The notes under the pieces: model-generated
The model's input: the letters and a program-made list of their open reading frames with translations, nothing else
Told to the model about the DNA's origin: nothing
The model's database searches: none
Shown: positions 17,800 to 63,287 of the stretch, one piece after another
How positions within the stretch are numbered: the first letter of the stretch is position 1
Layout: every line of letters begins with the position of its first letter
Position numbers and translations under genes: made by a program
From: Eledone cirrhosa
Taxonomy: Eukaryota
Assembly (NCBI GenBank): GCA_964016885.1
Contig: OZ024740.1
Location: forward strand, 70,060,001-70,124,000
Direction of reading: 5' to 3'
Length of the DNA stretch: 64,000 nucleotides

Positions 17800-17806
<7 letters not shown>

Positions 17807-18497: not shown

Positions 18498-18533
18498 AAT
18501 CACTTCTGCTGCTAGCATATTTCTTACTATATG

Positions 18534-19819: not shown

Positions 19820-19861
19820 TATATTTATTTATTTATTTATATATTTATATATGTATATATA

Positions 19862-26074: not shown

Positions 26075-26462
26075 TCATCTAGCTCCATTTTTACTTGTAG
26101 CTAATAAGTTAAATAGCTATGACTAACTTAGATAATTATAAGTTACCTCCCCTACATTGTCTCTCAATTAAAAAATTAAAAAAATTAGCACTTAACTATA
26201 AACTACCCACAATTTCTAATCTCTAGAGGAGTTACTTCCCCTGAAACCACCCTCTAATTAGTAAGGTAAATATGTCCTTTGGCAGCCATCTTGTTACCCA
26301 TAGGCAGATCTCACACAATGCAATCTCGACAGATGAATACTGCTTGATTATGGCTGACAACTGATGCAACCAAGACACCATAGTGAAAAACCAATATATG
26401 GAACATTATATTATGTAACATTCTCTTATTATTTTAATGAAGTTCCGATGAGTTCCTTTGAA

Positions 26463-26582
26463 GTTCCGATGAGCCGCTCTGTTCTTTAAATATGTTAATT
26501 ATTTTCAACTGAACCAGATCAATTATGATATATAGTCATCTGATCCAGAAATATCATATGGAGTAGCGAAACAATTGTAAAC
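26463..26582 (+). ncRNA. Hammerhead ribozyme variant in the pseudo-LTR of Penelope element 1
   Basis: GTT-CCGATGA-GCCGCTCT...~80 nt...GGAGTAGC-GAAA-CAATTG-TA-AAC. U4C core variant, palindromic ACAATTGT helix III, GUA site, 3-bp stem I. Confidence 0.68.
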
Positions 26583-26959
26583 GGACATTATTATTATTAT
26601 TAATATTATTATTATTATTTTCTACATGCCTTACATCAAACTAAAATATGTTGACAATCTTTTAATAATGTCTTCCTTGTGAAATTTGTGGTCTTGTTTT
26701 GCTTAACTAATGAATATTTCCAGCTCTGCGCACCTAACTTCTGCATGAACCCAGCCACCTAGCTGCTTTCTACTGCATATTGCACATTGAGCACATGCCT
26801 TTACGCTTTGGCTTCTAACTAATTCACCAATCTCTCCTCTCATGTCTCCTCTCCTATCTCCATCTCTCTCTTTAAGATTGGTTACTCTTGAACTGTGTAT
26901 ATATATATATATGTATATATATATACATATATATGTTTGTGTGTGTGTGTGTGTGTGTT

Positions 26960-32019: not shown

Positions 32020-32329
32020 TGAAGGGTTCATTCTACTGACATGGCTTTAAAATTGAGGGTTGTTTGCATAGTTACAAACGAATCGAATGTTATTAATGTA
32101 TATAAACCACAGACCCTCCATCTCAACTCACCTTTTGAAAAGCAGAAGAACTGCGAAACCGGTAAAGGAACCAAATAAATATATATATATTTTTTTTTAA
32201 AATAAGACTCCAGTTGCATTTTCGATTTCATCTCTTTTTCTTTATATATATATATATATATATAAGATATATAAGTTAAAGAAAGAAGAGTAACATGGTT
32301 GGCTTTACAATAAGGGCTTTATTTAAAGT

Positions 32330-32854: not shown

Positions 32855-33020
<166 letters not shown>

Positions 33021-33070
33021 GACGTAAAATAAGAACATTTTAAAAATTAACTTACTTACTAAAATTTTCA

Positions 33071-33151
33071 CTTCAACTAATTAGTTTCTGTAAGGGAATA
33101 AATATAGTTACGCAACGCAACCATAGAGAAATCCTTACGTCATCAGGGAGT
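33071..33151 (-). ncRNA. Hammerhead ribozyme (minus arm of the 530-bp element)
   Basis: Reverse complement of the 34093 motif, with a GUU triplet and a weakened stem I. Confidence 0.65.
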
Positions 33152-34092
33152 CTATTCTCAGCTAAGTTCCCAGGCAATGCGCGGACACTAGAAACCTATA
33201 TAAAAATAATAATTCAGTGGATGGAAAAAAGCGAGCGGGGACTAGATTCCAGGGCACTGAAAAAATTCACTGCCTACTTGGTCATTGGCAAATTCTAAAG
33301 AATCAATCACGTGACACTGAGGTTAATCAGTGAGGAGTGAAGTGGTAATAAGACAAGAGCCTAACTACTACCATGAACCATAGCAGTAAATTTCAGCAAG
33401 TTTTGCTCAACAAATAATTTGGAGATAAATATAGAGAATTAGTATATCTACCAACATATGTATACAGATGTATACCCATGCTAGCAAATATATATGTTAT
33501 GTCTTAGTACCTTTGTGGTTCTATGCAAGGGGATGCAGAACAATTATATGAAACACGTAAAATAAGAAAATTTTAAAAATTAACTTACTTACTAAAATTT
33601 TCACTCCTACTAATTAGTTTCTGTAAGGAAATAAATATAGTTACGCAACGCAACCATAGAGAATATTTTTAATTTTTTTATTTTATGTCTTTCGTATAAT
33701 TGTTCTGCATCCCCTTGCATAGAACCACAAAGGTACTAAGACATAACATATATATTTGCTAGCATGGGTATACATCTGTATACATATGTTGGTAGATATA
33801 CTAATTCTCTATATTTATCTCCAAATTATTTGTTGAGCAAAACTTGCTGAAATTTACTGCTATGGTTCATGGTAGTAGTTAGGCTCTTGTCTTACTATCA
33901 CTCCACTCCTCACTGATTAACCTCAGTGTCACGTGATTGATTCTATAGAATTTGCCACTGACCAAGTAGGCAGTGAATTTTTTCAGTGCCCTGGAATCTA
34001 GTCCCCGCTCGCTTTTTTCCATCCACTGAATTATTATTTTTATATGGGTTCCTAGTGTCCGCGCATTGCCTGGGAACTTAGCTGAGAATAGA

Positions 34093-34172
34093 TTCCCTGA
34101 TGACGTAAGGATTTCTCTATGGTTGCGTTGCGTAACTATATTTATTCCCTTACAGAAACTAATTAGTAGGAG
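34093..34172 (+). ncRNA. Type I hammerhead ribozyme (plus arm of the 530-bp element)
   Basis: TTCC-CTGATGA-CGTAAGG...ATGGTTGCG TTG CGTAACTAT...CCTTACA-GAAA-CTAATTAG-TA-GGAG. Palindromic ACTAATTAGT, GUA site. Confidence 0.85.
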
Positions 34173-34334
34173 TGAAAATTTTAGTAAGTTAATTTTTAAA
34201 ATTTTCTTATTTTACGTCTTTCATATAATTGTTCTGCATCCCCTTGCATAGAACCACAAAGGTACTAAGACATAACATATATATTTGCTAGCATGGGTAT
34301 ACATCTGTATACATATGTTGGTAGATATACTAAT

Positions 34335-35481: not shown

Positions 35482-35539
35482 CTTTATGCTCTGATGAGTC
35501 CCACTTATAGTGCGGATGAAACAATGTTAGCAAGTAAAG
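35482..35539 (+). ncRNA. Solo type I hammerhead ribozyme motif
   Basis: CTTTATGCT-CTGATGA-GTCC CAC TTATA GTG C GGAT-GAAA-CAATG-TT-AGCA AG TAAAG. Stem I is TGCT/AGCA, extended by CTTTA/TAAAG. GUU site. Confidence 0.75.
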
Positions 35540-37717: not shown

Positions 37718-38237
37718 GTGTATCAGATCAGGTGTGTTAAAAAAGCAGGTGGACCATAGCCCACGAGAGTCCTCGATACTTGGGGTGGTAGAGTGGGTAA
37801 AATGAAAAGATTCAGGACCACGACGGCTGACCACTGGCCGTTTAGACAGCTAGATCCGAACGTCCGGATATATACACACACACACACATATATATATATA
37901 TACATATACATGTATAAATATATGTATATATATATATACGTATATATATATACGTATATATATATAGATATATTTATATTTATATATATATACATATATA
38001 TATATACGTATATATATATACGTATATATATATAAATATATTTATATTTATATATATATACATATACATATATATATTTATATTTATATATATATATATA
38101 TATATATATACGAAAATGTTCAAGACCCCATGGGGTCTTGAACATTTTCCTATTACCCACTCTACTACCCTAAGTATTAGAGAACTCCGGTGCGTTTTGG
38201 TCCACCTGGTTCCTTACCACACTTCCTTCGTTATATA

Positions 38238-39407: not shown

Positions 39408-40010
39408 TTGTATGTGTGTGTGTGTGTGTGTGTGTATGTATAGGCATATAGGTATGTGTTGCAACATGTTCAAACCTGATATGGTTGGACAACAAAAGCT
39501 ATACGGCCAAATGGTAAACAGGAAATAATCCAATCTACCAATAAGGTGTGTCGCCTATTGACTTTATTTTGCTCCAATAGCAAAAATAAAAATGAACCAT
39601 TCAAGAGAACAAAGTGAATACTTTTCAACAATTGATTTCTACTGATCTTTTGTTTGTTTGAAATATCAGTATAATAGTCTCATTTACTTTTTAGAAGTCA
39701 TTCAATCAGAATTATATCATTTTTCCTTCTTCCTTGAATAATAATAATAATAAAAATAATAATAATGTTTTCTTTATTAACCACAAGGGTTTACATAAAG
39801 TAGACATTAAGGACAGTACAGGACAATACAGGACGGTACAAATGGGCATTTCTGCGTGTAAAAAAAACAGAGGATGAAATAAAATAACAAAGAAAAATTC
39901 CCCAATAGGGGGGAGACTTCCGAGGGATATTTGTGGAGAAAGCCCATTAAAAGACCACAGTGGCCCTGACCACCAGGGAAAGTGCCCTCTCCCAGTTTTC
40001 CACCTTTAAT

Positions 40011-43000
40011 TTACAGACACATACTCAGAGAAGGCCCATTCATTCGGGCCATACTTGCTTCTCTCACCCATCTTTCATCAAAATGCTGGGAAGAGAGCAC
40101 TTCCCTCTCTACCCTGATTTTCCTTTTCAAATGAAATTTGAAAAAGTTAATCAGGGCATCACCGAAGAGGTAAGTGCTCGTCTTCAGCCCTTTCAAACGT
40201 GTCCACCATACTATCTCTTTCGCCATGGCCACCAGACAGATAAAAACTGCCTGCCCTTCCCGGCTAAAGGAAGGGGGCGGGGCAATCCTCACGATGGACT
40301 CAGCTGATAGCTGGATCCGTCCTACACGTGACAGCAGGTGTTCGACATAAACCCACAAGTCAGCAATGCTCGGACACTGGACGAGTGCGTGCAGGACGGT
40401 TTCGTCGCCCTGCGCGCATCTCGGACATGCCCGGCTGACGGCACCTCCATGCCTGTAGAGTTTATCCCGAACTGGCAAGGCTCCTCGGTAGCACTGCCAG
40501 GCCAGAGATTTCTGGAAGTTGTCCATAGGCCCTGGCCCGAAAGTTCTTCCGAAGAGATTGGCTAGTTGATTTTCGTCGACGCCTAGAGTTTCCCCAAGTA
40601 CGTCGTCGCTCTTCCCCTCCACTAATCCTCTATAGAACGCCGAGGTGGAGTTTCCATCGATCACATTGCCCGATTGGTCGAGGGCTGTGAGCGCCTGAAG
40701 ACATTCCAGTCTCCAGGCGCTCCCTCTCGGTCTTCGCTTGACCCAGGACTGCAGCTCCGTCAAGGAAACGAGCTGGGGAAATACGTGTCTAGCAAACGGC
40801 GACCACACCTGATCACCGTCGAGGAAGAGGTGGAGATGTCGTAGCCTGAGCGTGTGCCTGCGCATCATCAGCCACGGCATGCCCAGCCCTCCACGTAGCG
40901 GGTGTTGACAACAGATGGACCGCCTGACCATCGGAGCGCGTCCCTTCCACAAAAAGCGAAAGAGCAAACGCTCCAGCGCAGTCAGACGAGGCTTAGGACA
41001 AGGTACGACGGTCAGGCGGTAGCAGATGACAGATGCGATGTACGCGTTAGCCACCTCCGCTCGACCTTTCAGGGATAGCTTCTTCTCCGCCCATTTCTGG
41101 GTGAGAGAAGCCAACCTGCTCGTCACCTCGTCCCAGTTTTTGTCCATCTGGAGATCCGGACCGAACCAGACCCCTAGCAATTTAACCGGTCCGTCTGTCC
41201 AGCGTCCGACGACGCTGTTGGACGGCATGGACCTGCCTCTCCAGGTGCCGAGCTGCAGGCCCACTGACTTTTCCTGGTTGATCATTGCTCCTGTCACCGC
41301 TTCGTATTCTCTTAGTGTAGTGCCGATCGCCTCGATGTGTTTGGCGTTCGACACCACTACGGTGACATCGTCCGCATATGCTGACACGGATCTTCCGCAT
41401 CCTAGTTCGCGCGGCACGCCCCTCAGCGTCTCCAGTTTGTGCAGTAATGGCTCGAGAGTCAATACGTACAAGAGGGACGAGAGGGGACATCCTTGGCGGA
41501 CCGAGCGCATGATGTTGAACGGTTCCGACAGGTGACCGTTCACTCTCACCACAGAGCAGATGTCGCTGTGCATGGCAGCGATCCAGCCTCTGAAGACGGG
41601 CCCAAAGCCAGCCGCCCTCAGGTAACGATGGTCGACCCTATCGAAAGCTCTCGACTGATCTAAATTGATCAAGGACCCACCCGTGCCAGGTTCCCTAGCC
41701 CTCCTCTCTACGATGTATCGCATGAGGTGGAGGTTGTCGTGGATGGATCTGTCGGGAATGGCACATGTCTGCGCCTCTCCCACCAGACCAACAACGACAA
41801 GCGCCATCCTCTTTGCTAGCACCTTGGCCAAAATCTTGAACTCCGTGTTTAGCAGAGTTATGGGCCGGAAATTATCTATGTTATCCCCCTTGTTCGGATC
41901 GTTTCTCAGCAGTGCCACCGCTCCTCGGCTCACAGAACTGGGAATTCTGCCGTTCTGTTGCCAGTTGCAGTAGACGTCCGCCAAGAGGCCTCCGAACAAG
42001 TCTGGCATCTGTACGTAAAGTTCATAGGGCAGACCATCCAAACCAGGCGATTTACCCCTTGTGCAGCCAGTCATTGCCTCCCTTACTTCAGCGGCTGTTA
42101 TCGGCTTTTCGCAACACTTCGCCTCAGTGGTCCATCCCTCGACCCGGCCCACCGCTGCCCCCGAACAGCTGAGCGAAGTGTCGCTGAAAAGCTTCACACA
42201 TTTTCCCGGGATCGAGTAGCATGCGCCCGTCGTGGTCCACCAAAGACCGGATCGTGGTTTTGTTGCCACGACGCGCCTCCGCCACTCGGGCCCATTGAAC
42301 GGCTTTCGTCCCCTCGTGTCTGAGAGCACGCACCCTTGCTCTGACAACGCAGCCTTCGTGCTTTGCATTGAAGAATTGGTCAAGGGCCAATTTCGCCGAA
42401 AGCACGTCGGTCGCAATGCCTTTGCTAAGCGCCTCGTTTAATTTTCTAACTAGTTCTCCCTCTGCTCTATTTTTCTCTATTGCTAAAGACTTACTAAACC
42501 TAATGGATTCTAATCGCTCTTTTCAGAGCAAACCACCACTTGTTGTTGACGATGGCCCCCGTCAACGCCCGCTTAACTAGTTCGCTAATCCGGTCTCTGT
42601 AGGCCTTGCGCGCTGGTAAGGACGCGTTTAGCTTCCAGTAGCCGGGTCCTCGTCTATGAAGCCTATCTAAGTCAAGCACACAGATCACGAATTTGTGGTC
42701 CGTGTAGCTGACTATCTTGAATTGTGGACAGCCTATGCTAGACCTATCTATTTCCCTACAAAATACTCTATCTAGATATGATCTGGATGACCCTATGCGA
42801 TTTGTCCAAGTCCACATTGGCACATTCGGGAAATCCAATCGGTACCTGTCAGACAGTTCAAAACGCCTGAGCAGGTTGGTGAGGCTCTTGCACCCTCCAC
42901 CCCTATCCGCTAATCCCACACAGTCCCAGCGTGCACCTAAGATCCCGTTCCAGTCGCCCACTAACACTAAAGAGCGGGACGTTCCAAGAAAGGTCTCCAG

Positions 43001-43375
43001 ACGCCGGAAGAAATCAGGCCGCCCTGCTCCTGTCGGGGCATAGACAGCCACTAGCCTGAAAGCTTGCCCGTCTCCGCTGGTCACGTCCAGCACCACCAGC
43101 TTACCCTCTGGGTCCAGGAAGATGGCCCGTATGGCGAGATCCAAACCTCTCCGAAAAAGCACAGCAACTCCTCCCCCCGATCCAGGACGGCTGGGAGATG
43201 CGTACACATCGTAGCCGCCGAAGATCGGTGCGAAGGCCCGTGCTTCGGAGATTCTGGTCTCGCTGATGGCCACTATATCTATGTTTAGTGACCTGAGGTC
43301 GTTGAGCAGGTGACCTTGCTTCCATGACGACCCCAAGCCACGCGCATTTATGCTGCCTATTCTGAGTGAGGTCAT
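40011..43375 (-). pseudogene. ORF2: APE endonuclease, reverse transcriptase and zf-RVT, broken by frameshifts near 42500 and 42125
   Basis: SINARGL, ISETR, VAVYAP, LVGDWN, SYLDRVF and YTDHK (APE, 42500-43375). RQGCPLS, AYADD and CPRC...HALVQC (40011-42416). Confidence 0.95.
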
Positions 43376-43683
43376 GTTTAAAATAGAGTGGAAAAGATGG
43401 GAAAGACCACTTACCGTACTTTTCGTAGAGGAGGGATGCTTTTTACATCCCTTTTCACTTGATCGTCTGGTGAAGGGACCGTTGAATCGTCCCTTCGGCT
43501 AGTCGTCGGCTCTTTTATGAGTATGTCCGAATATACTCTTCGATTGATAGTTCCTCCTAGGTCCCTGAAATCACCAACTGCGTTGGGGAATTTCGTTTTA
43601 ATGTTTGTGTGTCGTTTTTGTGCTATTTTTAGCAGTCTTATGTTAGTTGACGTTTTGATTGGTGCTGGTATTATGTAGTCGTG

Positions 43684-45513
43684 TTATGAAATGTCTGTGT
43701 GTTCAATTCTGTAAGTCATTAGTTTCTTGTTGTGTGTATTTATTGCCGTGCATTTGTTTTTCTGGGGGTGGGGTGTGGTTCTGCTATTTTCTTGTCGTTG
43801 TTGCTGGGTGTGTGTGTTTTGTTGTTGTGTTTGCGATGTTGGTGCTTGTGGTGGTGGTGTTGAAGGTGTTGTTGGCGGTGGGGTTGTCGCCGGTGGTGAT
43901 GGTGGTGCTAGTGTGGGTGGTGATGGTGTTGGTGGTGTTGCTGCTGTGAGTCTCTTTGCAGTAGACTTTACCCTTTTCTCATTTCTTTCCTCCCTTTTCA
44001 AAGGCGACGATGCGCTGCTTCTGCGTTTGTGCCTTCTTACGACCTTTTGCCATCCCTCTCCCACCTCACACTCCATGTCTGATTCTGTGAGGTCGGGGAG
44101 GGGTACCAGCTCCACTCTTTCACTTGTTGTTGTTGTTGATGTTTGCGGTGGAGTCTCTGTTGCAGCTGCAGTTGGTATTACTGTTGTTGTTGTTAATACT
44201 TCCATTGCTGCTGCTGTTCTTGATTTCCGTGGCGTGGGTATGGGTGCCACGGACCTATCGTTCCTGGTTGCCGCTTGTCCTGTTGCGGATAGCCGTGGAG
44301 CCGGTTTCGGAAGGAGGGGGGTTTCCTCCTTTCTCAGGGTCTTCTCGTTGCAGAAGGCTCTGAGGTGAATCTTTGATCCACAGCGAAAGCATTTCGGGCG
44401 TTTGCCCTCAACACTTATGGGCAGTTGAGTGCCGTTATCGAAGTCTATCACATCCGGGATAGCTTCGATGCACTCCTGGTTGGTTTGGATTAGCATCTCA
44501 ATGGAGGTGCCGACCCAATCTTCTCTTACTTTTTTCTGTACTTGCAGTACAGTTGTTTTGTCCTCGATTCCGACGAGGACAGACGTGGCCAGCCAAGAAG
44601 GGGCCATCCCGGGGGGGACGTGGGTCAGTTTGACCCTCACAATTTTTTGCCCGCAGTAGGAGGGCACCAACACCATTTTCTCGCTCCTTAGGGTCACTAC
44701 GGATTGAGCCTTTGCCTCCTGGGGTGTGGAAAAAAGTACGTCTACGGTGGCATATTTTTCGCCTCGGGTGATGTGCGTTTTCCGCTGCCACACAGACCCC
44801 AAGGCTTTTTGTATTTGAGCCTCTGTGGCTCTTTCAACCCTACGGGATTTTGTACTTACTGTACGGTACGTGACCGTACAGTGCTGTTGGGTTTCGAAAA
44901 AATTTTCCGCTGCCTTGCAGATTGCTCGGTGTCCAGTCTTTGTCACCATCTTCTTCGCTTCCTCTAATTCCTCATTTGTTATGAGGATTGTTTCCAGGTT
45001 TTTCGCAATACCTGCAAATGAGATTGGTTTTTCTTTGCTGCTGTTGTTGTTGTTGTCGTCAGAGCTGCTGTTACTTTTGTTGTTGCTGCAGGTACTACGA
45101 CTACTGCCTCCGCCGCTGTTGCTGTGGTTGTTGTTGGTGTTGCTGCTGCTAATGCTGTTGTTGTTTATGCTGCTGGTGATGCTGTTCCGGCTGCTACTGT
45201 TGTTTTCATTGTCACTGTTGCTGTTGTTATTACGGCTGCTACTGCTATTATTCCTGACGTCAGACGAATGAAATGGGTTTTCGTATTTCCCGCACACCTG
45301 TTTCGTCGTTGTCGTCGTCGTCGTGGAGAAATCTTGCACGCTTTGCACGAGACTTTTCTTTTTTGTCGTCGCTTGCGAAAGAGAAGGGAGGGAGAGAGAC
45401 ACATTTAAAGAAGGGAGGGAGAGAGACAATCTTCTCTCTGCTGTAGTGATGATTGAGGAAGAAGAAGACGGAATGAGTGGGTGTGACCTATGAAAATTCT
45501 TTTTCGTAGCCAT
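43684..45513 (-). CDS. ORF1 (gag-like nucleic-acid-binding protein with CCHC zinc knuckle) of Tx1-like LINE
   Basis: Open frame from the ATG at 45513 (MATKKNF...). Contains CFRCGSKIHLRAFC (CX2CX4HX4C), WQKVVRRHKRR and low-complexity N/S and P/T tracts. Lies upstream of ORF2. Confidence 0.85.
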   Translation of the reverse strand: MATKKNFHRSHPLIPSSSSSIITTAERRLSLSLPSLNVSLSLPSLSQATTKKKSLVQSVQDFSTTTTTTTKQVCGKYENPFHSSDVRNNSSSSRNNNSNSDNENNSSSRNSITSSINNNSISSSNTNNNHSNSGGGSSRSTCSNNKSNSSSDDNNNNSSKEKPISFAGIAKNLETILITNEELEEAKKMVTKTGHRAICKAAENFFETQQHCTVTYRTVSTKSRRVERATEAQIQKALGSVWQRKTHITRGEKYATVDVLFSTPQEAKAQSVVTLRSEKMVLVPSYCGQKIVRVKLTHVPPGMAPSWLATSVLVGIEDKTTVLQVQKKVREDWVGTSIEMLIQTNQECIEAIPDVIDFDNGTQLPISVEGKRPKCFRCGSKIHLRAFCNEKTLRKEETPLLPKPAPRLSATGQAATRNDRSVAPIPTPRKSRTAAAMEVLTTTTVIPTAAATETPPQTSTTTTSERVELVPLPDLTESDMECEVGEGWQKVVRRHKRRSSASSPLKREERNEKRVKSTAKRLTAATPPTPSPPTLAPPSPPATTPPPTTPSTPPPQAPTSQTQQQNTHTQQQRQENSRTTPHPQKNKCTAINTHNKKLMTYRIEHTDIS

Positions 45514-47832
45514 GTTGTTTTTTTTGTTTAAAATAAATATTGGGCACAAAACCCCAATAAGCAGTTATTTAATCCCGAAGGGCCAAATAACGGGCAAAAA
45601 GACCCCTCTCACGAGGAGGGGGGTGTTTTTGTCTACAAGTTCGTTAAAGTTTTAAACAATTTACAATTGTTATAGCGTTCAAAATTTACAATACCTTACA
45701 GAGCCGAGCCTCCGTCAACCATAGCATTCAATAATAATAATAATAATAAAATTAATAATAAGGCGCTACTGATAACACGCAACTCAGCACAACCTTTCAT
45801 ATTTTTGGTCGTCGGTGACTGAACCGTCAAACCCACCAAGCTTCCTTGGTGAGCAGGGTCAATATTGGACACCCTGCGGAATGAAAAGTTCCGAGGAATT
45901 TAGAGGAGACAATGGCCATCCAAAAACAGGCGGACAGAACACATTTACCTTGATTGGCTAGGAGAAAGCACACTGATTTAAAATCTGGGGTAGATGGGTG
46001 TCCTTGTCCACCAGAGTAACAACCATTCAAGTAGTCAACAGCTTCAACCATTCTAGTTGTCAACTATGGATATACACTTGGCAAATATCCATGGTCGGTG
46101 ACCCACAGAAATTAGGATAGGAATTCTCCCCCTTTATGGGTAGAAAGAAGTTAACAATCTTGCTAGAGATGATGTCTCGATAAAAATACTGGTTGGTGGC
46201 TAACCTTAAAATACCAACCTCAATATTGAGAGAAAATGTCTAATATAAATGTATTGAATAATGCTCTTAATGAAGCTGAAACCAACGATGAAGGTAGGTG
46301 TCTTGTGTTTGAGCATCGCAGTCTGTTTGTCATCCATAGTCTTCTCATAATCAAAGTAAGAGAAAAACGTGGGACAAGGAGTTGAACCGAATTGTAATTG
46401 AGTACTTTATCAGAGGTGAACCCAGTAAAAGCGGATTCTGAAAGGGCATGAAATCAAAATGGAATGAAATAGGACTCTTTGAAATAGGTCATCAAAGGTT
46501 AGCCAATCAGGAAAGAGTATAATTCACCGCTATAACATGGTGATGCCAATAAATAAATCTGTTTATGGTTAGTAACATTTCTCGAACTTAGTAAAATCTG
46601 TGAGAGAATTACCTAACAATGTTACAGTTGGTATTTTTGGAATGTTTCTGTCTATCTTTGGAGATAATGTGCGAATGTCTTTTAAGAAATGGCTATGTAT
46701 CATTTTAATTGTATCGATTACAAATGGTATGATATACATATTCCTTAACAACCGTAGTTATTTCATAGCTTTCCATATCGCTTATATACAATAGTATAGT
46801 CATTCCTTATGTTATATAAAATAATTTCAGATTTCTTATATATCTGGTGGTCTTTCTGTATGTAAAGCTCCTGAGAATTGTTGCATTGTCAATTTCTAAG
46901 ACTAGATGGAATTATGAGTACAGGAGAGATTTTCCTGTAACAATTGAGATGTGGCGGCTGGATATTGCTACATTACTGTATTTCCAAAGATATTTTATCA
47001 GGCCTCGTGTGGGATAAATGTGGAGAAATAGACGATGTTTGTTCTGGTTTACTACACTCTGAGTTCAAATCCTGCCGAGTTCAACTTTGCCATTAATCCT
47101 TTTGAGGTGGCTAAATAAAATACCAAGTAAATATTAGGGCCGATACTTCCTCTCTATTTCTTTCTCAACCCTCTCTTTTCCGTTTCTCTCTATTACTCTC
47201 TTATTCTTTCTCGTTCTCTCTCACGCTCTCTCTTCATCTCTGTTTTTTTTTTAACTGGATATAATAGGCTGTATTCCAACCTTGAGAAGAATGGGCTCCA
47301 CGGGGTTTAAACAACCATAGACAACATTGTACTTCAGGACTGTGCTTCTACGACTCCACCAGGAATTAAGACTACTAAATCATTACTTTCGTATAGTGGG
47401 ACATCGTGAATATTTGTATATGGAAATGCTGTAATTTGTCTTATGTCTCATAGCATTGCAAAATTTATCATAGCAATTTTTTCAATATATCTGACGCGGT
47501 CATCTACTCCTATATCCATATATAGCTTCTTCTGCTGTCCCCTTTGCGCATATTTTGTGCAACCAGACCAGAGATATATGAGGCATCCAGTTTGCTAAAA
47601 TACTGTGCATATAAAGGCAATCCAATATGGTTGTTAGCCCCAGTTGAGTTATGTGCCATTGGTGTGTTTGGTTTTACTACTTCCGCTACTGCTACGACTG
47701 CCGCATTAGGTTCAGACCGTAGCTGTTTGAAGTCTACGCCAATTTCTTGTGAGGATTTTTTTTCTACAGATATTATAGATATTATTTACTTTTAATATTG
47801 TTAATGTCATTATAATTATTACTGTAATTCTT

Positions 47833-48458: not shown

Positions 48459-48494
<36 letters not shown>

Positions 48495-48507
48495 TTAATA
48501 TAGATGA

Positions 48508-48556
48508 GATTCTACAGGACTAGAACTGTTTCATTCTTTAGAAATCATCAGGAATC
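48508..48556 (-). ncRNA. Type I hammerhead ribozyme in a short non-coding element (48490-48627)
   Basis: Minus strand reads GATTC-CTGATGA-TTTC TAAA GAAT-GAAA-CAG TTCTAGTC CTG-TA-GAATC. Five-bp stem I, a true helix III, GUA site. Confidence 0.85.
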
Positions 48557-48626
48557 AACTTTTATACTCTGCTATGTATTGAGTACCTTACTTACTGTGG
48601 TTACCTCCGATTCAACCCGGAATAAC

Positions 48627-49565: not shown

Positions 49566-49640
<75 letters not shown>

Positions 49641-49732
49641 AAATGAAATAAATAAGTCAAATGTTTAAAATTTGCCTTCGTTTATTACAAGCAACATATA
49701 CTAAAAAAAAAAACATATATATATATATATAT

Positions 49733-49898
49733 ATGAGATTCTACAGGACTAAAACTGTTTCATTCTGATTTCTTATGATTTCTAAAGAATGAAACTGTTC
49801 TAGTCCTGTAGAATCTCATCTATATTAAAACTTTTATACTCTGCTATGTATTGAGTACCTTACTTACTGTGGTTACCTCCGATTCAACCCGGAATAAC
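49733..49898 (+). repeat. Second copy of the 48490 family, with a short inverted head and a mutated HHR (CTTATGA) at 49767-49815
   Basis: Shares the HHR and the tail CTTTTATACTCTGCTATGTATTGAG...CCCGGAATAAC with 48490-48627. Confidence 0.8.
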
Positions 49899-49901
49899 TT
49901 A

Positions 49902-49998
<97 letters not shown>

Positions 49999-50155
49999 TG
50001 GAATAAATGCTCTGAAATAGCGATATATATGTGAATATAGACATAGAATATTCGAAAATATTCTGTATGTTTATAATAAACATTTTGAAGACCTAATCGC
50101 TATAGAATAGAATACGTCACGTATTACAATTAGATTCTCGATAAAAGCAAGGGAA

Positions 50156-50198
50156 GTAATCTACGCGTTTCATTCTCGTTAGAAATCATCAGGACTAC
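50156..50198 (-). ncRNA. Type I hammerhead ribozyme (second minus copy at 50466-50508)
   Basis: Reverse complement of the 50910 motif. Confidence 0.9.
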
Positions 50199-50909
50199 AT
50201 ATCCAGTGCTTTTATCGAGAATGACACAGCTAGAGACTTATAGAATACTTAGCTGTGTACAGGAACTGGTTTGAAAGAGCGGTTGCCGGTCCGGCAGAAA
50301 TTAGAAATTGGAATAAATGCTCTGAAATAGCGATATATATGTGAATATAGACATAGAATATTCGAAAATATTCTGTATGTTTATAATAAACATTTTGAAG
50401 ACCTAATCGCTATAGAATAGAATACGTCACGTATTACAATTAGATTCTCGATAAAAGCAAGGGAAGTAATCTACGCGTTTCATTCTCGTTAGAAATCATC
50501 AGGACTACATATCCAGTGCTTTTATCGAGAATGACACAGCTAGAGACTTATAGAATACTTAGCTGTGTACAGGAACTGGTTTGAAAGAGCGGTTGCCGGT
50601 CCGGCAGAAATTAGAAATTGGAATAAATGCTCTGAAATAGCGATATATATGTGAATATAGACATAGAATATTCGAAAATATTCTGTATGTTTATAATAAG
50701 CATTTTGAAGACCTAATCGCTTTATAAACATACAGAATATTTTCGAATATTCTATGTCTATATTCACATATATATCGCTATTTCAGAGCATTTATTCCAA
50801 TTTCTAATTTCTGCCGGACCGGCAACCGCTCTTTCAAACCAGTTCCTGTACACAGCTAAGTATTCTATAAGTCTCTAGCTGTGTCATTCTCGATAAAAGC
50901 ACTGGATAT

Positions 50910-50952
50910 GTAGTCCTGATGATTTCTAACGAGAATGAAACGCGTAGATTAC
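50910..50952 (+). ncRNA. Type I hammerhead ribozyme (further copies at 51220, 51530 and 51840)
   Basis: GTAGTC-CTGATGA-TTTCT AACG AGAAT-GAAA-CGCG-TA-GATTAC with palindromic ACGCGT. Stem I is extended by a perfect 16-bp ATTCTCGATAAAAGCA/TGCTTTTATCGAGAAT. Confidence 0.93.
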
Positions 50953-52002
50953 TTCCCTTGCTTTTATCGAGAATCTAATTGTAATACGTGACGTATTCTA
51001 TTCTATAGCGATTAGGTCTTCAAAATGTTTATTATAAACATACAGAATATTTTCGAATATTCTATGTCTATATTCACATATATATCGCTATTTCAGAGCA
51101 TTTATTCCAATTTCTAATTTCTGCCGGACCGGCAACCGCTCTTTCAAACCAGTTCCTGTACACAGCTAAGTATTCTATAAGTCTCTAGCTGTGTCATTCT
51201 CGATAAAAGCACTGGATATGTAGTCCTGATGATTTCTAACGAGAATGAAACGCGTAGATTACTTCCCTTGCTTTTATCGAGAATCTAATTGTAATACGTG
51301 ACGTATTCTATTCTATAGCGATTAGGTCTTCAAAATGTTTATTATAAACATACAGAATATTTTCGAATATTCTATGTCTATATTCACATATATATCGCTA
51401 TTTCAGAGCATTTATTCCAATTTCTAATTTCTGCCGGACCGGCAACCGCTCTTTCAAACCAGTTCCTGTACACAGCTAAGTATTCTATAAGTCTCTAGCT
51501 GTGTCATTCTCGATAAAAGCACTGGATATGTAGTCCTGATGATTTCTAACGAGAATGAAACGCGTAGATTACTTCCCTTGCTTTTATCGAGAATCTAATT
51601 GTAATACGTGACGTATTCTATTCTATAGCGATTAGGTCTTCAAAATGTTTATTATAAACATACAGAATATTTTCGAATATTCTATGTCTATATTCACATA
51701 TATATCGCTATTTCAGAGCATTTATTCCAATTTCTAATTTCTGCCGGACCGGCAACCGCTCTTTCAAACCAGTTCCTGTACACAGCTAAGTATTCTATAA
51801 GTCTCTAGCTGTGTCATTCTCGATAAAAGCACTGGATATGTAGTCCTGATGATTTCTAACGAGAATGAAACGCGTAGATTACTTCCCTTGCTTTTATCGA
51901 GAATCTAATTGTAATACGTGACGTATTCTATTCTATAGCGATTAGGTCTTCAAAATGTTTATTATAAACATACAGAATATTTTCGAATATTCTATGTCTA
52001 TA

Positions 52003-52043
<41 letters not shown>

Positions 52044-52112
52044 TATGAAGAGAGAAGAAACATTTAGATATAATTAGTAATAAAATGTATCATACCTAAA
52101 CTGCTCCTAGAT

Positions 52113-52202
52113 TCCTAGACTACGTAGTTTCGTGGCATAAACAAAAACAATACATCATAAAGATATAGAGTCCTTGCGAGGTCTGCCGACTTATCAAGAG
52201 GA
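52113..52202 (-). ncRNA. Hammerhead ribozyme, U3-A8 variant (minus arm)
   Basis: Reverse complement of the 52718 motif, with one stem I mismatch next to the cleavage site. Confidence 0.68.
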
Positions 52203-52717
52203 TACCTCATTTTACTAGCCTCAAGAACGCGTCTACACGACGTGAGAAAGAATCCCAAAAGGCGGAGGGGGTATTTATATCGAAGCCGCAGAAGAGGTGG
52301 TGAAGGAGGCGAGAAGTATGAGTAATGGCAGCTTTCCAGCACTCACCACACTTCAAAGATTACTCGACCAGAGGGAGTTATTAACAATATATTTAGAAAC
52401 ACACAGATACATGCGGACACACACATATACATGAATGCATCCACACCCAACCGCGAGTTAAGGGTGCCAACCTCACCGATGTTGCTCAATGGTGACTGCT
52501 GGAAAGCTGCCATTACTCATACTTCTCGCCTGCTTCACCACCTCTTCTGCGGCTTCGATATAAATACCCCCTCCGCCTCCGTGGTATTTTCTTCGGGGTT
52601 ATAAGAGGCTTAGCTCTGTTTCTCGACCGTTAAGTCGCGTGACTATCTCCCCCTCCGCCTTTTGGGATTCTTTCTCGCGTCGTGTAGACGCGTTCTTGAG
52701 GCTAGTAAAATGAGGTA

Positions 52718-52807
52718 TCCTCTTGATAAGTCGGCAGACCTCGCAGGGACTCTATATCTTTATGATGTATTGTTTTTGTTTATGCCACGAAACTACGTAG
52801 TCGAGGA
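52718..52807 (+). ncRNA. Type I hammerhead ribozyme, U3-A8 compensatory variant
   Basis: TCCTC-TTGATAA-GT(C)GGCA...TGCCAC-GAAA-CTACGTAG-TC-GAGGA. Palindromic ACTACGTAGT, GUC site. Confidence 0.82.
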
Positions 52808-53046
52808 ATCTAGGAGCAGTTTAGGTATGATACATTTTATTACTAATTATATCTAAATGTTTCTTCTCTCTTCATAATGTATTTTTAACTCTGATACTGG
52901 TTCAGTCTAGTTCAACCGGATTGGTCTGTCCCAGTCATTCATTGAGCAACATCGGTGAGGTTGGCACCCTTAACTCGCGGTTGGGTGTGGATGCATTCAT
53001 GTATATGTGTGTCCCCGCATGTATCTGTGTGTTTCTAAATATATTG

Positions 53047-53098
<52 letters not shown>

Positions 53099-53225
53099 AG
53101 TAATAATATTTTCGAATCAGCGAGCGAGTTTGAAATTATTATAAATGTAAGCTATCGCCGTATTTTGACTAAAGAAATTAAAGAAATTATGTAGCCTGAT
53201 AGTGGGGTTAAGAACCCTCAGGAAC

Positions 53226-53418
53226 GATCGACTTTCGTCAAATCGGACCGAGGAAACAATGTTTTCGTCGGTCTTTCCAGTTGCTAGTACTATCTAACAG
53301 GAGTAACGTGAAATAAAGTGTCTTGCTCAAGGACATAAAGCATCGCCCGGTCCGGGAATCGAACTCACTATCTCACGATTGCGAATCCAATTCTCTAAAC
53401 ACTCAGCCACACGCCTTC
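53226..53418 (-). mobile_element. tRNA-derived SINE with a CORE-like segment
   Basis: Minus strand reads GTGGCTGAGTGTTTAG (A box), GAGTTCGATTCCC (B box), then TGTCCTTGAGCAAGACACTT, which resembles the CORE-SINE motif. Confidence 0.8.
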
Positions 53419-53420
53419 AC

Positions 53421-53542
<122 letters not shown>

Positions 53543-53851
53543 GTGTGTGTCTGCATGTGTGTGTGTGTGAGTGTAGATATATAAATATATATCATACTTA
53601 TACACATGCGGGCGTGTCTTCTAAATGCACTGAAACAAAGATTCAACGACATGCGATTGGACTGAAACGTGTGCAACATTATGTATGTGTGTGTGCGTGT
53701 GTGTGTATGTATGTATCCATGTATATACCTATATACATGGATACATACATAAATACACACAAACACACACACATATATATTTATATATATATATATATAT
53801 ATTATGGAATACTGTTGACTACTTGCTACAATACTTTCTATACCTTTCATT

Positions 53852-57631: not shown

Positions 57632-57917
57632 GCACACATTTATTCTTTGTCCCATTGGCCTGCGAAATCTTGCAATATATATATAAATATATAAATGTAT
57701 ATATATATATATAGTATTAGTTATACTATTTATGGTTATGTAAACACAAAACCTTAAGCAGTTGTAAGTATTTTACACACACCCTAAATAGTGGTAGGCA
57801 GTAATGTATTACTACCTTATTACCAGTAAGTTAAGTAGCTCAATGTAAAAACATCAGATGATTTACAGAGCAGATATATGAAATATAAGAATCAAAGAAC
57901 TGTTCAAAACATTATTG

Positions 57918-57964
57918 TGCTTACAGCTGTTTCCTCCAAACCGAGGTTTGGATTCTTCGGAGCA
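57918..57964 (-). ncRNA. Hammerhead ribozyme variant (inverted copy of 60214-60260)
   Basis: Reverse complement of the 60214 motif. Confidence 0.75.
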
Positions 57965-58307
57965 ATTTATTAATGCATGGACAGTTATATGACCTCCTTT
58001 TCAGCCGAGAGACATACCAATACATATTCAAACATTGATACATATTCAAACATTGTGGGTCAACATTCATTACAGAATTTAGAGTGGCAGTACACACTTC
58101 GAGATTACATTTATATTAATAGGTACAATCAAAAATCAAAGATATAGGTTAAAGTACAACATGAAGATAAGTGGTTATATAGTGCAAATGTTATATGTGT
58201 GGCACGCATATGCGTCTTGTTTATATAGTGTGGCAGAGATATATGTGTGGTAGAGGCACTTAGGTAGGTAAATAAGAGTGTTAGGTTGGTAGATCTGGTG
58301 GCAAAGT

Positions 58308-58769
58308 CATTATAACCAGCGGACTAACGCACAGAATAATTGTAACTGTAGAGCTAATAGAACCTGCCCTTTAGATAAAAAATGCCTAACCAAGGATGTC
58401 ATATACTCATGCACAGTCACGACTAATAACTCTTCAGAAACCTATGTAGGCTCCACTTCTAACTGCTTCAAAATCAGATATAACTCGCACATCCACTCGT
58501 TCAAAAAGCACAGCCTAGCCAACTCCACCTCACTTTCTAGCTACATACACTATCTAAAATCTAAAAATAAACCATACACACTCAAATGGGAAGTGATAGG
58601 CAGCGCGACCTCGTACAAACCACCTAATAAATTCTGTAACCTCTGTATACTAGAGACACACAATATTATCTTCTCCAACCGTAACCTACTTAACAAAAAA
58701 TCTGAGGTGTTTGCAACTTGCCAGCACCGCCTCAGACATTCCTTCCAAAACTTTAAGCCCTATATATAG
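58308..58769 (+). pseudogene. GIY-YIG endonuclease C-terminus of Penelope element 2 (no start codon, absent from the ORF track)
   Basis: Open frame NCNCRANRTCPLDKKCLTKDVIYSCTV...TYVGSTSNCFKIRYNSHIHSF...LKWEVI...CNLCILE...CQHR, ending at TAG 58767-58769. Confidence 0.9.
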
Positions 58770-60213
58770 CAATGTCGGACTGGAACCTAACACCGCATCT
58801 AGCATCAAACACCAGAGACACACCCTATACTACATACCCAACACTAGCTGATCCATTATAACACAAACAACGACATCCCTCTGGAACCCTTCGCAGGGAA
58901 AATACCCATTTATACCTCTACGGCAGGTGTGACAACATCCACCCACTTGGACGGCACTACACCGCTCTAAGGGTAATTTTGAGCATGAATTGATCGGTTG
59001 GATGGTGTTGGGCAGAGGAAACACCTTCCTTAGACAGATGTAAAATGATTTAATCGAGTAGCGCTGTTGACCAGTAGGACCGGGCTGCTGAGCGCAGTGA
59101 GTGAATGCAATGCAACTGCCGTGCGGGTTGTACGTATATGGATGATCTGACGGTCAGAGAGGGGTCGCGAGGACTGCGGATTGACCTTTGGCCTGCCTGG
59201 GGACGATTATCTTTCGACATCCAATGTAGCAAGCGATGACCCAGATCTTACCAGAGATCATTGGGTCCCGAAGCAGTCCTGCAATCACCGCGCCTGGTCA
59301 TATGAGCAGACTACAACCACAGAGATCATTAATTTAGAATCCTCGCTCATCATCTATAATTTCCATTTGTAGCACCTTAAGATGGGTTAATCCACCCTAA
59401 TAATAATATGATCACCTTCAGCATAATTTAGTTAAACTACTCTATAGTTAGTACACTTTATGCTTTAAAAGTCTCTCTTGGAAGGTGCACCTCACCATAG
59501 AATTTAGGGTCTATATTGGGACACATTTTAATGACTAGATATAGAAACCCCAGAGTTACCTCCCCGCATGCATTAACTCCCCTTAGCCACACACACACTT
59601 CCGGTATTCAATGGCGTTTCTCGAAACGTAACAACCTCCTGTATCGAACTAAAGAACACCAGGCTACGATCTCTAACTGGATTGTCGTGGATTATGTGAA
59701 AGGCATATAATCGAAATATACACTCCCTTGACCATGAAAATGCCGAAGTACATGAATAACTTGACATCCCTGCGCTGTGCATCTCCAATACTTATAACAC
59801 TTTTAATGCTTGCACTATCTTTAATGCTTATAATATTTCTCCACACACAGACTATATCAATCATATAAAGACTTTGCCACCAGATCTACCAACCTAACAC
59901 TCTTATTTACCTACCTAAGTGCCTCTACCACACATATCTCTCTGCCACACTATATAAACAAGACGCACATGCGTGCCACACATATAACATTTGCACTATA
60001 TAACCACTTATCTTCATGTTGTACTTTAACCTATATCTTTGATTTTTGATTGTACCTATTAATATAAATGTAATCTCGAAGTGTGTACTGCCACTCTAAA
60101 TTCTGTAATGAATGTTGACCCACAATGTTTGAATATGTATCAATGTTTGAATATGTATTGGTATGTCTCTCGGCTGAAAAGGAGGTCATATAACTGTCCA
60201 TGCATTAATAAAT

Positions 60214-60260
60214 TGCTCCGAAGAATCCAAACCTCGGTTTGGAGGAAACAGCTGTAAGCA
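60214..60260 (+). ncRNA. Hammerhead ribozyme variant in the pseudo-LTR of Penelope element 2
   Basis: TGCT-CCGAAGA-ATCCAAACC TC GGTTTGGAG-GAAA-CAGCTG-TA-AGCA. U4C core variant, long stem II, palindromic ACAGCTGT. Confidence 0.78.
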
Positions 60261-60361
60261 CAATAATGTTTTGAACAGTTCTTTGATTCTTATATTTCAT
60301 ATATATATATATATATATATACATTTATATACTGGACTCCTTTGAAGAGGACCTGCTGAAA

Positions 60362-62807
60362 ATGATCAAAAACGTTAAGCTCAGAAAGAAACACCAATGC
60401 AGCAATCCATTCTTAACGTCCCTTGATACACTAATAACTAAGATCAAGAATGACCCGCACCTCTTCGTCACCTCCGACAAAACCAAAAAGCTGTACAAGA
60501 TGGACGCGAGTGAGTATAAAAAATTCATCTATAAGGAACTACACAAAGACTACAAAAAGACACCCTCTAGTACCCTAAATGACATAAATAGAGTAGGGAA
60601 GGATATAGTCACCAGCCTAGAAATAGAAAAGTACACTAACCCGTACGTCCCTCTGACGCCTAAATTCTCTCTTAAGGATCACAAATATGACTTTAATGAA
60701 AGCCCCTCTATTAGACTTATATGCCCCTCTACATCAGATATAGGTAAGATTAGTAAAGTGATCCTTGACAGAGTACTACTCGAGCTTAATAGAAAGGCTA
60801 AGGTCTACCTCTGGGGCAACACACCTGAAATTCATCCAGTTTGATATAGATAGCTACTACGCCTCTATCTCCCCCATACTCTTAAATAAGGCACTTATCT
60901 TAGCTAGATCTAACACTAGCCTCACCAAAAAAGAAATAGACATAATTCTAGCGGCACGTAGAACCATTATCCAGTTCGAAGGCTCCCACTGGACCAGAAC
61001 CAACCGTCCTGATAACTTCGATGTCACGATGGGGTCCAGCGACTCAGCGCAAGCAACTGACCTGGTTGGGATATACCTCCTACATAAGCTTAGGGAAGAA
61101 ATACCGGCCCTACAAGGAGGTGTATATAGGGACGACGCCCTGTTTACTGTTAGGAACCATAGCCCCCGTAGGATAGAGAACCTTAACAAACATATACACA
61201 GGTTCTTTAAGTCATACGGCCTATCCGTAACTATGGACCTCAACCACAGGGTTGTCAACTTCCTGGACGTGACCCTGGAGTTGAGTACGGGCTTATACAA
61301 GCCATACCATAAGCCTGGAGAGTGCCTCTCTTATATTAATTATGCCTCCAACCACCCTAAGCAGACTCTCAACTCCATTGTCTATAGTATCTCACATAGG
61401 ATCTCGAGGCTATCCGCCAATGAGGATATCTTCAACCAAGCGGCTGATTACTACAATAGGGCCCTGATAAGCGCCGGCTTTAACCGAGGAATTTCCTACA
61501 TCCCTAACGCTAGCTCTAGAAACCACCCCCCTCATAAAACTAACGTTATAGTAAGCCATACCTATAACCGATCACGCGGCGACCTCGTTAAAGTCGGATA
61601 TAATAGAATAGATAACCGCACCAAAGATCACGTCCCCGGCGACGGTGAATACTGTAGATTACTCAAACTTTTCCCCTATTACAAAACCAACAAAGGCGAC
61701 GGCCTACTACCAACGCCTTCCAACCAACATCTTCGTGTACATAAACATGGAAGTGGTAGAAAGAGTGCACCCGAGCATAAAGTGAAAGGGGCACCGAACG
61801 GGCGACAGCGCATTAACACACATATGAGCGATCACTTAGATGGAACTACCCGTAGCAAAAGTACAAGGACACGTAATCGCCACCGTAACGTCCTATGGTT
61901 CCACCCCCCCTACTCTCGAAGTGTGGCCTCCAACATACCCCGGATATTCTTCGAAGCCTTAGAGAAGAACTTCCCACCCAACCATAGGTATAGAAAAATT
62001 CTTAATAGGAACAATATAAAAATATCCTTCTCTACTACTCCTAACCTAGCAGACATCATAGGAACAACGAACCACAGTAAGATCACCAAGACACAGCACC
62101 TCGACGCAGACGCACCTACACCTGACAATAACTGTATCGGCCTTAACAACTCCCTGACAGCATCCAATAGTGTTGGCAACGGCATCCGCAGACGCAACCA
62201 GAATGACCGCGAAGTGACTGGGGAGCATGCAAAACATGGCGTGCGGAATAACAATCGCACCATCCCGCGTGCTGTGGGTTGTAATTGTGCTAACGACAGC
62301 TGCGGTAGCGCAGCTAGCAACGTAGGCAGCAACAATGATAGCCTTATCGTGGGAAATAGACGGAACAGCGACAGAAATTGCAACTGCCGCGACAGAGGAC
62401 GGTGCCTCCTTAGAGGTTACTGCTTGACCGATAGGGTTATATATAGATGCACTATTACTAGCCACAATAGCGTTAAACATTATATAGGGGCCACCTCCGG
62501 CCCGTTCAAAATTAGGTTTCGAACACATCTCCACTCTTTCACAAATAGAAAACTAAGGCACTCCACCTCGCTCGCGGACTACATCACATCACTAAAGGAC
62601 TTAAACATTAGCTTCTCCACGCACTGGGAGATTGTCGACAGGGCTGCACCGTACAACTTCAAGAGGAAATGCGATCTTTGCCTCATGGAGCTCTACCACA
62701 TCATAACTGCACCCCACGAGCTCATCAACAGCAGAGCTGAAACAGCGATAAGTTGTACACATCGCTTAAAAATATCCTTCTTTAGATGGGTTAAGAATGA
62801 AGAGTGA
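60362..62807 (+). pseudogene. Penelope RT-GIY-YIG polyprotein with one frameshifting lesion near 60820
   Basis: SDKTKKLY, IRLICPSTSDIGKISK / FDIDSYYASI, FDVTMGS, VYRDDAL, VNFLDVTL, WFHPPYS, CNC, VIYRC...HYIGAT, CDLCLME. Confidence 0.95.
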
Positions 62808-63060
62808 AATAGCACACTGGATCTCCCTGCAACAAGTCTTAACACCCCGGCGGGCAGGCGCAGCAAAATAACACCCAGAAAACAATCCTTGCATACCAAA
62901 AATTATCCGGGAAAGACTGCCCTAACACCGGCCAAAGTTACCTCCCTTGACCTGCTGCAAAATCAAAACAAGATATTTTTGCGAGCAATGAATCTTGATG
63001 TGGATTTAACCCCCAAAACTCTTTCCGAACTATATAAGGAACTCTTGTGATTGTTTATGC

Positions 63061-63095
63061 CCTTGAGAAGCCCAACTGGGCGAAACGTACGTAGG
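63061..63095 (+). ncRNA. Minimal hammerhead ribozyme, U3-A8 variant, in the pseudo-LTR of Penelope element 3
   Basis: CC-TTGAGAA-GCCC AACT GGGC-GAAA-CGTACG-TA-GG with palindromic ACGTACGT. Stem I is short. Confidence 0.75.
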
Positions 63096-63178
63096 TGATA
63101 TTTTAAATAAACATGTTTTAACGGTCTATTCTCCGATTTTTCACTTTCCCACGTACATTTATATATTTATTTATAAAT

Positions 63179-63287
63179 ATGTTAATATGTTGTCAGATAC
63201 AAATTAGTCACTTTTGTATATAGAAAAAATAATGCATTTTTTCTATATACAAAAGTGACTAATTTGTATCTGACAACATATTAACAT
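63179..63287. repeat. Perfect palindrome with 52-bp arms and a 5-nt spacer
   Basis: 63179-63230 is the reverse complement of 63236-63287. Confidence 0.92.

Follow-up and report, generated by a model that had tools for sequence, protein, structure and literature searches.

Metazoan non-LTR retrozymes are non-coding, have a GC content below 50%, carry a type I hammerhead, give a circular RNA predicted to be stable, and are reported with indel variants and coexisting PLEs in the main texts of PMC7229834 (Cervera and de la Pena 2020) and 10.64898/2026.07.22.740005 (Li et al. 2026). The element that we describe here resembles them in each of these points. Circles of retrozyme RNA have been shown in PMC7229834, which names PLEs as the likely mobilisers and puts forward the circRNA model as a hypothesis, and retrozymes have been linked to pLTRs (10.64898/2026.07.22.740005). 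Until now, the connection between retrozymes and PLEs has been based on co-occurrence and on this pLTR homology.

EN+ PLEs insert as 5'-truncated inverted copies with head-to-head polarity, unequal 3' ends and a (TA)n target, they have a TATA-like motif and a hammerhead near the 3' end, and their junctions and deletions are mediated by microhomology (Craig 2021, PMC8557442; Arkhipova 2013, PMC3846280). All of this is found again in our element, where the role of microhomology is presumed, and permuted, overlapping halves in inverted orientation have already been noted for the rotifer Pen3 (PMC3846280). The PLE-associated hammerheads described by Cervera and de la Pena 2014 (PMC4209133) share with ours the U3-A8 core (~1,300 matches in Schistosoma), the G10.1-C11.1 pair and a palindromic helix III, and they occur as opposite-strand pairs 100-700 bp apart, compared with ~530-680 bp here; the same paper proposes circular templates for copies of more than unit length. 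In vitro, the anole Poseidon protein PAc cuts both strands of an AT-rich target and extends both, starting internally on the RNA (Frangieh 2024, PMC11167929). The PAc starts form two clusters with 30-40 nt between them, in an AC-rich stem-loop that has no homology to the target; by our own arithmetic, the internal starts are 85-92 nt past the hammerhead. According to passages in PMC8557442 and PMC7229834, the route by which PLEs arrive at tandem and inverted insertions, and the use of hammerhead circles as their templates, are unsettled.

We found no paper that combines retrozymes with head-to-head insertions, although subscription literature and Repbase were mostly outside our search, so this is weak evidence. 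Among the papers listed on retrozymes, inverted insertions and Penelope, and in passages of PMC8969392, we found nothing direct on the combination. The word "inverted" is absent from the main text of PMC7229834 and occurs in that of 10.64898/2026.07.22.740005 only in the title of a reference. Judged by titles and the openings of abstracts, none of the papers found on octopus and hammerhead ribozymes is on the subject.

The focal element occupies positions 52038-53049 of the 64-kb stretch of Eledone cirrhosa DNA that we analysed (the window). It lies between two (TA)n tracts and consists of two back-to-back arms of one 593-nt unit (Table 1). Self-comparison resolves it into three inverted blocks, 52038-52271/52649-52882 (234 nt, 98.7%), 52260-52348/52490-52578 (89 nt, 97.8%) and 52382-52498/52932-53049 (~117 nt, 96.6%). 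These bear out the original prediction, made from the sequence alone, that the plus arm reads B-hammerhead-C-A and the minus arm A-link-B-hammerhead, with the plus arm more fully written as B-D-hammerhead-C-A; as also predicted, A comes after the hammerhead in the plus arm and before it in the minus arm. The predicted unit size of ~590 bp agrees with our closure of the unit through C-A in the plus arm and A-link-B in the minus arm, which gives 593 nt with segment D and 511 nt without it. The plus arm covers 560 of 593 nt and the minus arm 454 of 511 nt, and the two differ at 6 of 412 aligned positions, which the original prediction had missed, beside an 82-nt indel. The unit has a GC content of 0.44 and is non-coding, with short frames only in six-frame translation; there is no ORF of at least 120 aa in 52038-53049, where an autonomous PLE would carry an RT and GIY-YIG ORF.

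Table 1. Features of the focal element and outward-facing hammerhead pairs in the window
Feature	Position	Strand	Remarks
Left (TA)n tract	52006-52040	.	Common to the 3' end of the neighbouring 310-bp element
Minus arm	52038-52491	-	454 nt, A-link-B-(no D)-hammerhead-80 nt; 3' end in (TA)n, 52038-52040 overlapping the tract
Type I hammerhead, minus copy	52113-52202	-	U3-A8; core 52197-52191; predicted cleavage after 52118
12-nt repeat, single copy at the indel	52260-52271	-
Link from A to B	52342-52381	-	Minus arm only; 33-40 nt depending on the choice of B start
Block A	52382-52491	-	5' end of the minus arm
Central head-to-head junction	52489-52498	.	The two arms' continuations share an imperfect microhomology of 9-10 nt; left-right-left-right mosaic
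Plus arm	52490-53049	+	560 nt, B-D-hammerhead-C-A; 3' end in (TA)n
TATA-box-like TATAAATA	52559-52566	+	Precedes the core by 164 nt (by 82 nt in the minus arm); motif by sequence
12-nt direct repeats	52567-52660	+	52567-52578 and 52649-52660, flanking the 70-nt segment D
Type I hammerhead, plus copy	52718-52807	+	Stem I 52718-52722/52803-52807; core 52723-52729 TTGATAA (U3-A8); stem II 52730-52788; GAA 52789-52791; palindromic stem III 52792-52801; predicted cleavage after C52802
C and A	52883-53049	+	C 52883-52939, A 52940-53049; 167-nt overshoot past the 3' end of the minus arm; long PLE-type "tail"
Right (TA)n tract	53048-53096	.
Six outward pairs			442-bp array; 19857-26717; 33016-34334; 310-bp array; focal element; 57879-60299

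On the retrozyme side, we find a type I hammerhead with a full core and three helices in a non-coding unit with less than 50% GC and no LTR; on the PLE side, an inverted, 5'-truncated, head-to-head copy in a (TA)n target. We would class the element as a new member of the non-LTR retrozyme / non-autonomous PLE kind that works like a PLE insertion; judged by this copy, it is neither an autonomous PLE nor a MITE. Its 593 nt are inside the 51-972 bp range that Li et al. give for retrozymes (10.64898/2026.07.22.740005), whereas the invertebrate circles of this literature are smaller, at 170-400 nt, and our unit stands apart from them also in its U3-A8 core and its 59-nt stem II. Retrozymes are described in these texts as head-to-tail tandems, in contrast to the two sub-unit arms placed head-to-head here. 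Such tandems have at least two hammerheads on one strand, while the focal locus has one per strand, and with a single cleavage site per strand the focal copy is unable to release a monomer or circle by itself. Its read-through RNA is predicted to be a long hairpin, 81% paired. By self-comparison, no other copy of the unit, in tandem or otherwise, is present in the window, and the C-A and A-link-B junctions would imply a tandem or circular source elsewhere. Compared with EN+ PLEs, the element has no ORF, no palindrome at the junction and no detectable homology to the PLEs of the window. The U3-A8 cores, the opposite-strand hammerhead pairs, the circRNA idea and the inverted layout of PLEs are already in print; here, non-coding hammerhead units and coding PLEs are found side by side with one insertion signature.

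The hammerhead had been predicted to be a U3-A8 variant with a long stem II, and this is what we find, with a TTGATAA core at 52723 and a stem II of 59 nt from A9 to G12, predicted to form a long hairpin in the plus copy (z -3.15, with 1 of 200 shuffles as stable). Stem I has 5 bp, stem III is a 10-nt palindrome, and the GUC site of the plus copy is at 52802. Of the 14 stem pairs that we tested, the plus copy forms every one and the minus copy 13; in the latter, a G-to-T change at position 1.1, overlooked in the original prediction, breaks the first stem I pair. In comparison with the hammerheads of PMC4209133, helix III can form 3 pairs and a tetraloop as a monomer, and helix II is extended to 59 nt. 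Rfam gave no match at gathering score in the window, and at E up to 10 there were 15 weak miRNA-like or UTR matches in 49600-53200 and no hammerhead, so the call rests on the motif scan and the fold. Two model results count against ribozyme activity: the active fold is predicted to be 3.7 kcal/mol (plus copy) and 10.5 kcal/mol (minus copy) above the local minimum, and the predicted probability of stem I is 0.0 in whole-unit ensembles. As a circle, the 593-nt unit has a fold z-score of -4.5 in the sense and +0.3 in the antisense orientation, and the other three units are similar (z -4.5 to -7.3; 25 shuffles each), an apparent sign of constraint on the unit at the RNA level.

A strict hammerhead scan returned 3 sites only. 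A looser scan, which we set after examples had been seen, returned 15 sites in 17001-64000, compared with a shuffle mean of 0.07 and a maximum of 1 in 100 shuffles, and it still missed the left-arm copy of the element at 33 kb and most of the 442-bp units, which have changed cores or stems. Two solitary hammerhead-like motifs were also noted, one with a U3-A8 core and palindromic stem III at 32135-32164 and one with a C3-G8 core at 35491-35528.

The window is rich in microsatellites and holds about 12 local inverted structures. In six of these a hammerhead can be scored in both arms, and the polarity is outward in every case, usually towards a TA-rich tract. RT and/or GIY-YIG domains are encoded on the hammerhead strand of two of the six. 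The motifs of these domains, DKT, CxCx5C and CxxC..E..CxH, are the marks given in PMC8557442 for the Hydra clade, which targets (TA)n and bears hammerheads. The motifs would place the PLEs of the window in this clade and make the clade a likely partner. One of the two, the PLE at 19857-26717, is head-to-head and combines Hydra-type motifs with C4-variant cores; a LINE fragment with an RT (~20150-22960), 81% like a LINE at 39874-42507, interrupts its left arm. The head-to-head PLE at 57879-60299 has a C4-variant hammerhead and a possible 165-nt tail to 57714. A third PLE, at 60287-63160, has an ORF at 60762-62807 (third ORF region 60287-62807, which has motifs of the same kind), with a 681-aa RT/GIY-YIG frame and a long linker, a TATA motif at the 3' end of the ORF and then a U3-A8 hammerhead at 63063. 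The atlas neighbours of the PLE protein are eukaryotic and often from Mollusca, among very few records. Pfam recognised none of the seven PLE ORFs (one weak GIY-YIG at E 0.04), a PDB search gave no match, and there were no informative names among the homologues listed (at least 120).

The 442-bp satellite at 1-17147 has 38 units with the hammerhead on the minus strand and an inverted arm from ~16746 to a (TA)n tract at ~17147; in most of its cores C3 has become A, and its divergence dips at a lag of 9 units (3.3% vs ~6%), as in a higher-order repeat. It is a retrozyme turned satellite. The 310-bp element at 49992-52015 has head-to-head arms of 2.4 and 4.2 units, a classic 40-nt tail and (TA)n on both sides, and its units are identical across both arms save 3 positions near the junction; it is very young and a better candidate for rolling-circle copying than the focal element. 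At 33016-34334 there is a second permuted head-to-head element, with a 527-533-bp unit, arms of ~1.2 and 1.3 units, and a C3-G8 hammerhead whose stem II has 51 nt and whose stem III is a 10-nt palindrome.

The arm orders constrain the RNA that was copied. A hammerhead-cut monomer would begin at 52803, and the arms reach 313 and ~370 nt upstream of an intact cleavage site. Since the cleavage site is crossed by both arms and has A on either side, the template cannot have been a linear monomer released by self-cleavage. The shortest linear template with both arm orders has ~700 nt, more than one unit, and the template RNA was thus longer than one unit, either circular or tandem. The permutation requires no more than a repeating template on which copying began at two points and ended at two. 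Hence the part of the original prediction that called for a circular or tandem template and two priming events is supported by the arm orders and the crossed cleavage sites.

We consider it probable that the focal element is a non-autonomous, PLE-dependent hammerhead retroelement of the non-LTR retrozyme type, inserted as two back-to-back cDNAs in one event. A source elsewhere would have given an RNA of more than one unit with the hammerhead uncut, be it a tandem read-through transcript or a ligated circle. A PLE RT/GIY-YIG protein may then have cut both strands of a (TA)n tract, as the flanks, the neighbours and the published in vitro work suggest. Each DNA end would have primed reverse transcription internally, at the points where we find the 3' ends, 80 nt (minus arm) and 247 nt (plus arm) downstream of the cleavage site. 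Both cDNAs would have run back through the hammerhead and halted after the 454 and 560 nt that we observe, and their ends may have annealed through the imperfect 9-10 nt microhomology present at the junction.

The in vitro work on the anole PLE protein, in which both strands are cut and extended from internal starts (PMC11167929), speaks for this explanation, as do the anatomy of the arms, the excess of hammerhead sites over shuffles, the outward polarity of all six scoreable pairs, the Hydra-clade motifs of the coding neighbours, the tail and multi-unit arms of the 310-bp element, the sense-only fold of the circular unit and the homology at the junction. The 80 nt of the minus arm resemble the PAc start distance, whereas the two focal ends are separated by 167 nt and have 2-3 nt in common with the TA tract. 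Unequal 3' ends recur in paired arms of the window, with an offset of 40 nt for the 310-bp element, ~115 nt for the element at 33 kb and 167 nt for the focal one. By eye, 5 of 8 scoreable 3' ends overlap (TA)n by at least 2 nt, with three more ambiguous, compared with a background of 0.26-0.37, which we count neither for nor against. At the junction, the continuation of the left arm matches the sequence upstream of the right arm at 7 of 9-10 positions; homology this good was seen in 1.7% of 20,000 random position pairs, for a window picked by eye after inspection. At the first mismatch the observed sequence follows the right arm, and at the second the left arm. Such a mosaic is more readily explained if two cDNA ends annealed than by one template switch, although a single substitution would also yield it.

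Against the explanation, the focal tail of 167 nt is far longer than the 30-40 nt given for PLEs in PMC8557442, we have one locus of the family in a 64-kb window, a target-site duplication is unreadable within (TA)n, and there is no sequence link between the focal unit and the PLEs: none of nine regions in the window stood out, the best being the 3' end of ORF 60762-62807, with 3 of 100 shuffles as good. The original prediction had suggested a search for an autonomous PLE sharing the pLTR of the focal unit; the window holds none, and three PLE 3' regions that we compared have no detectable homology to the unit. An exact 23-nt pattern had no matches in bacterial and archaeal genomes, giving no sign of a prokaryotic origin.

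The indel bears on how many templates there were. The original prediction that the minus arm lacks ~80 bp between direct repeats is right about a difference, which is 82 nt (70 nt and one repeat), while "lacks" is presumptive, as two copies fit deletion or insertion equally. The 12-mer occurs three times in the window (52260 minus, 52567 plus, 52649 plus) against 0.02 expected, and none of 100 shuffles reaches three. We presume a slippage or repair event, for which a deletion and an insertion with a 12-nt duplication both fit. Segment D has, at 52619-52627, a 9-bp complement to the cleavage site (52800-52808), with a predicted pair probability of ~0.77 in the circle. As a lock on the ribozyme D did not hold up: equally good pairing arose in 193 and 114 of 2000 shuffles and an equally good fold in 21 of 60 in-place shuffles, and the active fold incurs a similar penalty whether D is present or absent. 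We likewise rejected a footprint of A-to-I editing; A/G accounts for 2 of the 6 focal differences, but there is no A/G excess among the neighbours.

Since the arms overlap over most of their length yet differ by the indel, a single monomeric circle is unlikely as the sole template. Such a circle would not give the 6 substitutions and the indel unless they arose during or after insertion, and the comparison favours two templates, or two unlike units of one multimer. L1 twin priming is a model for double priming of one RNA.

Nearly an even chance goes to an uncleaved tandem (multimer) transcript, either as two such RNAs or as one RNA primed twice, across neighbouring units with and without D and with ~200 nt skipped between the arms. 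It accounts for the indel and the substitutions without further events. Unprocessed RNA is the dominant PLE substrate in vitro, the anole RNA-seq described with it has no reads ending at the cleavage site (PMC11167929), and 8 of 9 Xenopus dimers are reported as uncleaved in vitro (10.64898/2026.07.22.740005). If poorly cleaving RNAs are copied through, the broken first stem I pair of the minus copy is as expected, and so are two cleavage-site changes in the left-arm hammerhead at 33016-33663, although the latter also fit post-insertion decay or errors at a ligation junction. This clustering, 3 changes in 2 copies and no more than a lead, was noticed post hoc, and no such changes are present in the 310-bp, 19.9-26.7-kb and 57.9-60.3-kb pairs. 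Tandem arrays are present in the window, among them the 442-bp array with its mostly inactive cores and a 9-unit period of DNA-level origin, whereas a tandem copy of the focal unit is absent from it.

Ligated circRNA is a serious but more doubtful candidate. The templates would then be two circles out of a mixture of 593- and 511-nt forms, and reverse transcription of each would have started internally. Coral, mussel and axolotl retrozymes are reported to accumulate as circles with indel variants side by side (PMC7229834), and the focal unit is predicted to fold stably as a circle in the sense orientation only. The full units of the 310-bp neighbour are identical (4 of 4 in the right arm and 2 of 2 in the left), as rolling-circle copying predicts, though a young tandem array would account for them as well. 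In the element at 33 kb, a 4-nt indel is common to both left-arm copies of the redundant stretch and absent from the right arm; however, it may be one private loss, and the two left-arm copies differ at 5 of 115 positions, no fewer than between arms. At the focal locus neither arm is longer than one unit, so no second lap is visible, and an uncleaved tandem transcript gives the same permutation, which leaves the claim of a footprint specific to circRNA unsupported.

A bolder form of the circular template, which we regard as unlikely though worth stating, is that retrozyme circles are a direct substrate of Hydra-clade PLE proteins and that the cDNAs of two circles are inserted at once, one per cut end of (TA)n, and their ends annealed. 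If this is true, every short insertion in the genome preserves the two points on the circle where copying began and the two where it ended, the mosaic at the junction goes back to the repair of a heteroduplex, and the ligation site is marked by the changes at positions 17, 1.1 and 1.2. The insertions would then prove the circRNA-template model from genomic data and explain head-to-head PLE structures in another way than by antisense self-priming.

We give a low probability to a single priming event followed by fold-back or self-priming on an antisense template, or to a DNA-level inversion with deletion in a tandem array. Self-priming has been proposed in PMC3846280 for head-to-head structures of rotifer Penelope; the model needs palindromes at the junction, while the focal junction has no mirror point and the arms are offset and differ by an indel. 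DNA-level amplification is evident from the 9-unit higher-order period of the 442-bp array, yet an inversion requires a break exactly at the edge of (TA)n and a loss of ~200 nt, and it would not give outward polarity in six of six pairs. An assembly or read artefact, such as a fold-back chimera, is highly improbable: inverted PLE structures are said in PMC8557442 to trouble assemblies, but a fold-back read should have identical arms that mirror each other about a single point, and the focal arms are offset, 1.5% apart and carry an indel, each with private sequence. A MITE or fold-back DNA transposon, which the original prediction named as its refutation and which the size of ~1 kb, the lack of coding, the largely inverted structure and the TA flanks recall, is the least credible reading of all, as the left terminus pairs with internal position 52882 and not with the right terminus, so that the termini are not inverted repeats of each other, and the hammerhead is intact with sense and antisense folds that are asymmetric.

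The locus, for which we prefer PLE-dependent insertion of two cDNAs, is of value as readable junction data on the PLE cycle, although one locus does not decide between circle and tandem. The units are short enough for the two 3' ends and the central junction to be fully legible at every insertion, and with such junctions a genome-wide survey could tell circular from tandem templates.

Several other structures were observed in the window. Two tiny head-to-head insertions of one family, at 48492-48626 and 49734-49898, have a hammerhead like that of the 310-bp unit. Inverted or palindromic stretches at 17803-18532, 37732-38222, 53697-53760 and 63179-63287, several of them beside (TA)n, gave no hammerhead in the scan. 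A dispersed repeat at 17188-17396 and 53225-53423 (80% identical) ends in simple repeats and is probably a SINE, with what we take to be a B-box-like tRNA motif; a tRNA scan called no tRNA in it, and a sigma-70 scan gave nothing informative. A near-complete LINE on the minus strand at 40011-45564 has an ORF1-like frame, an AP endonuclease, an RT and a zinc finger.
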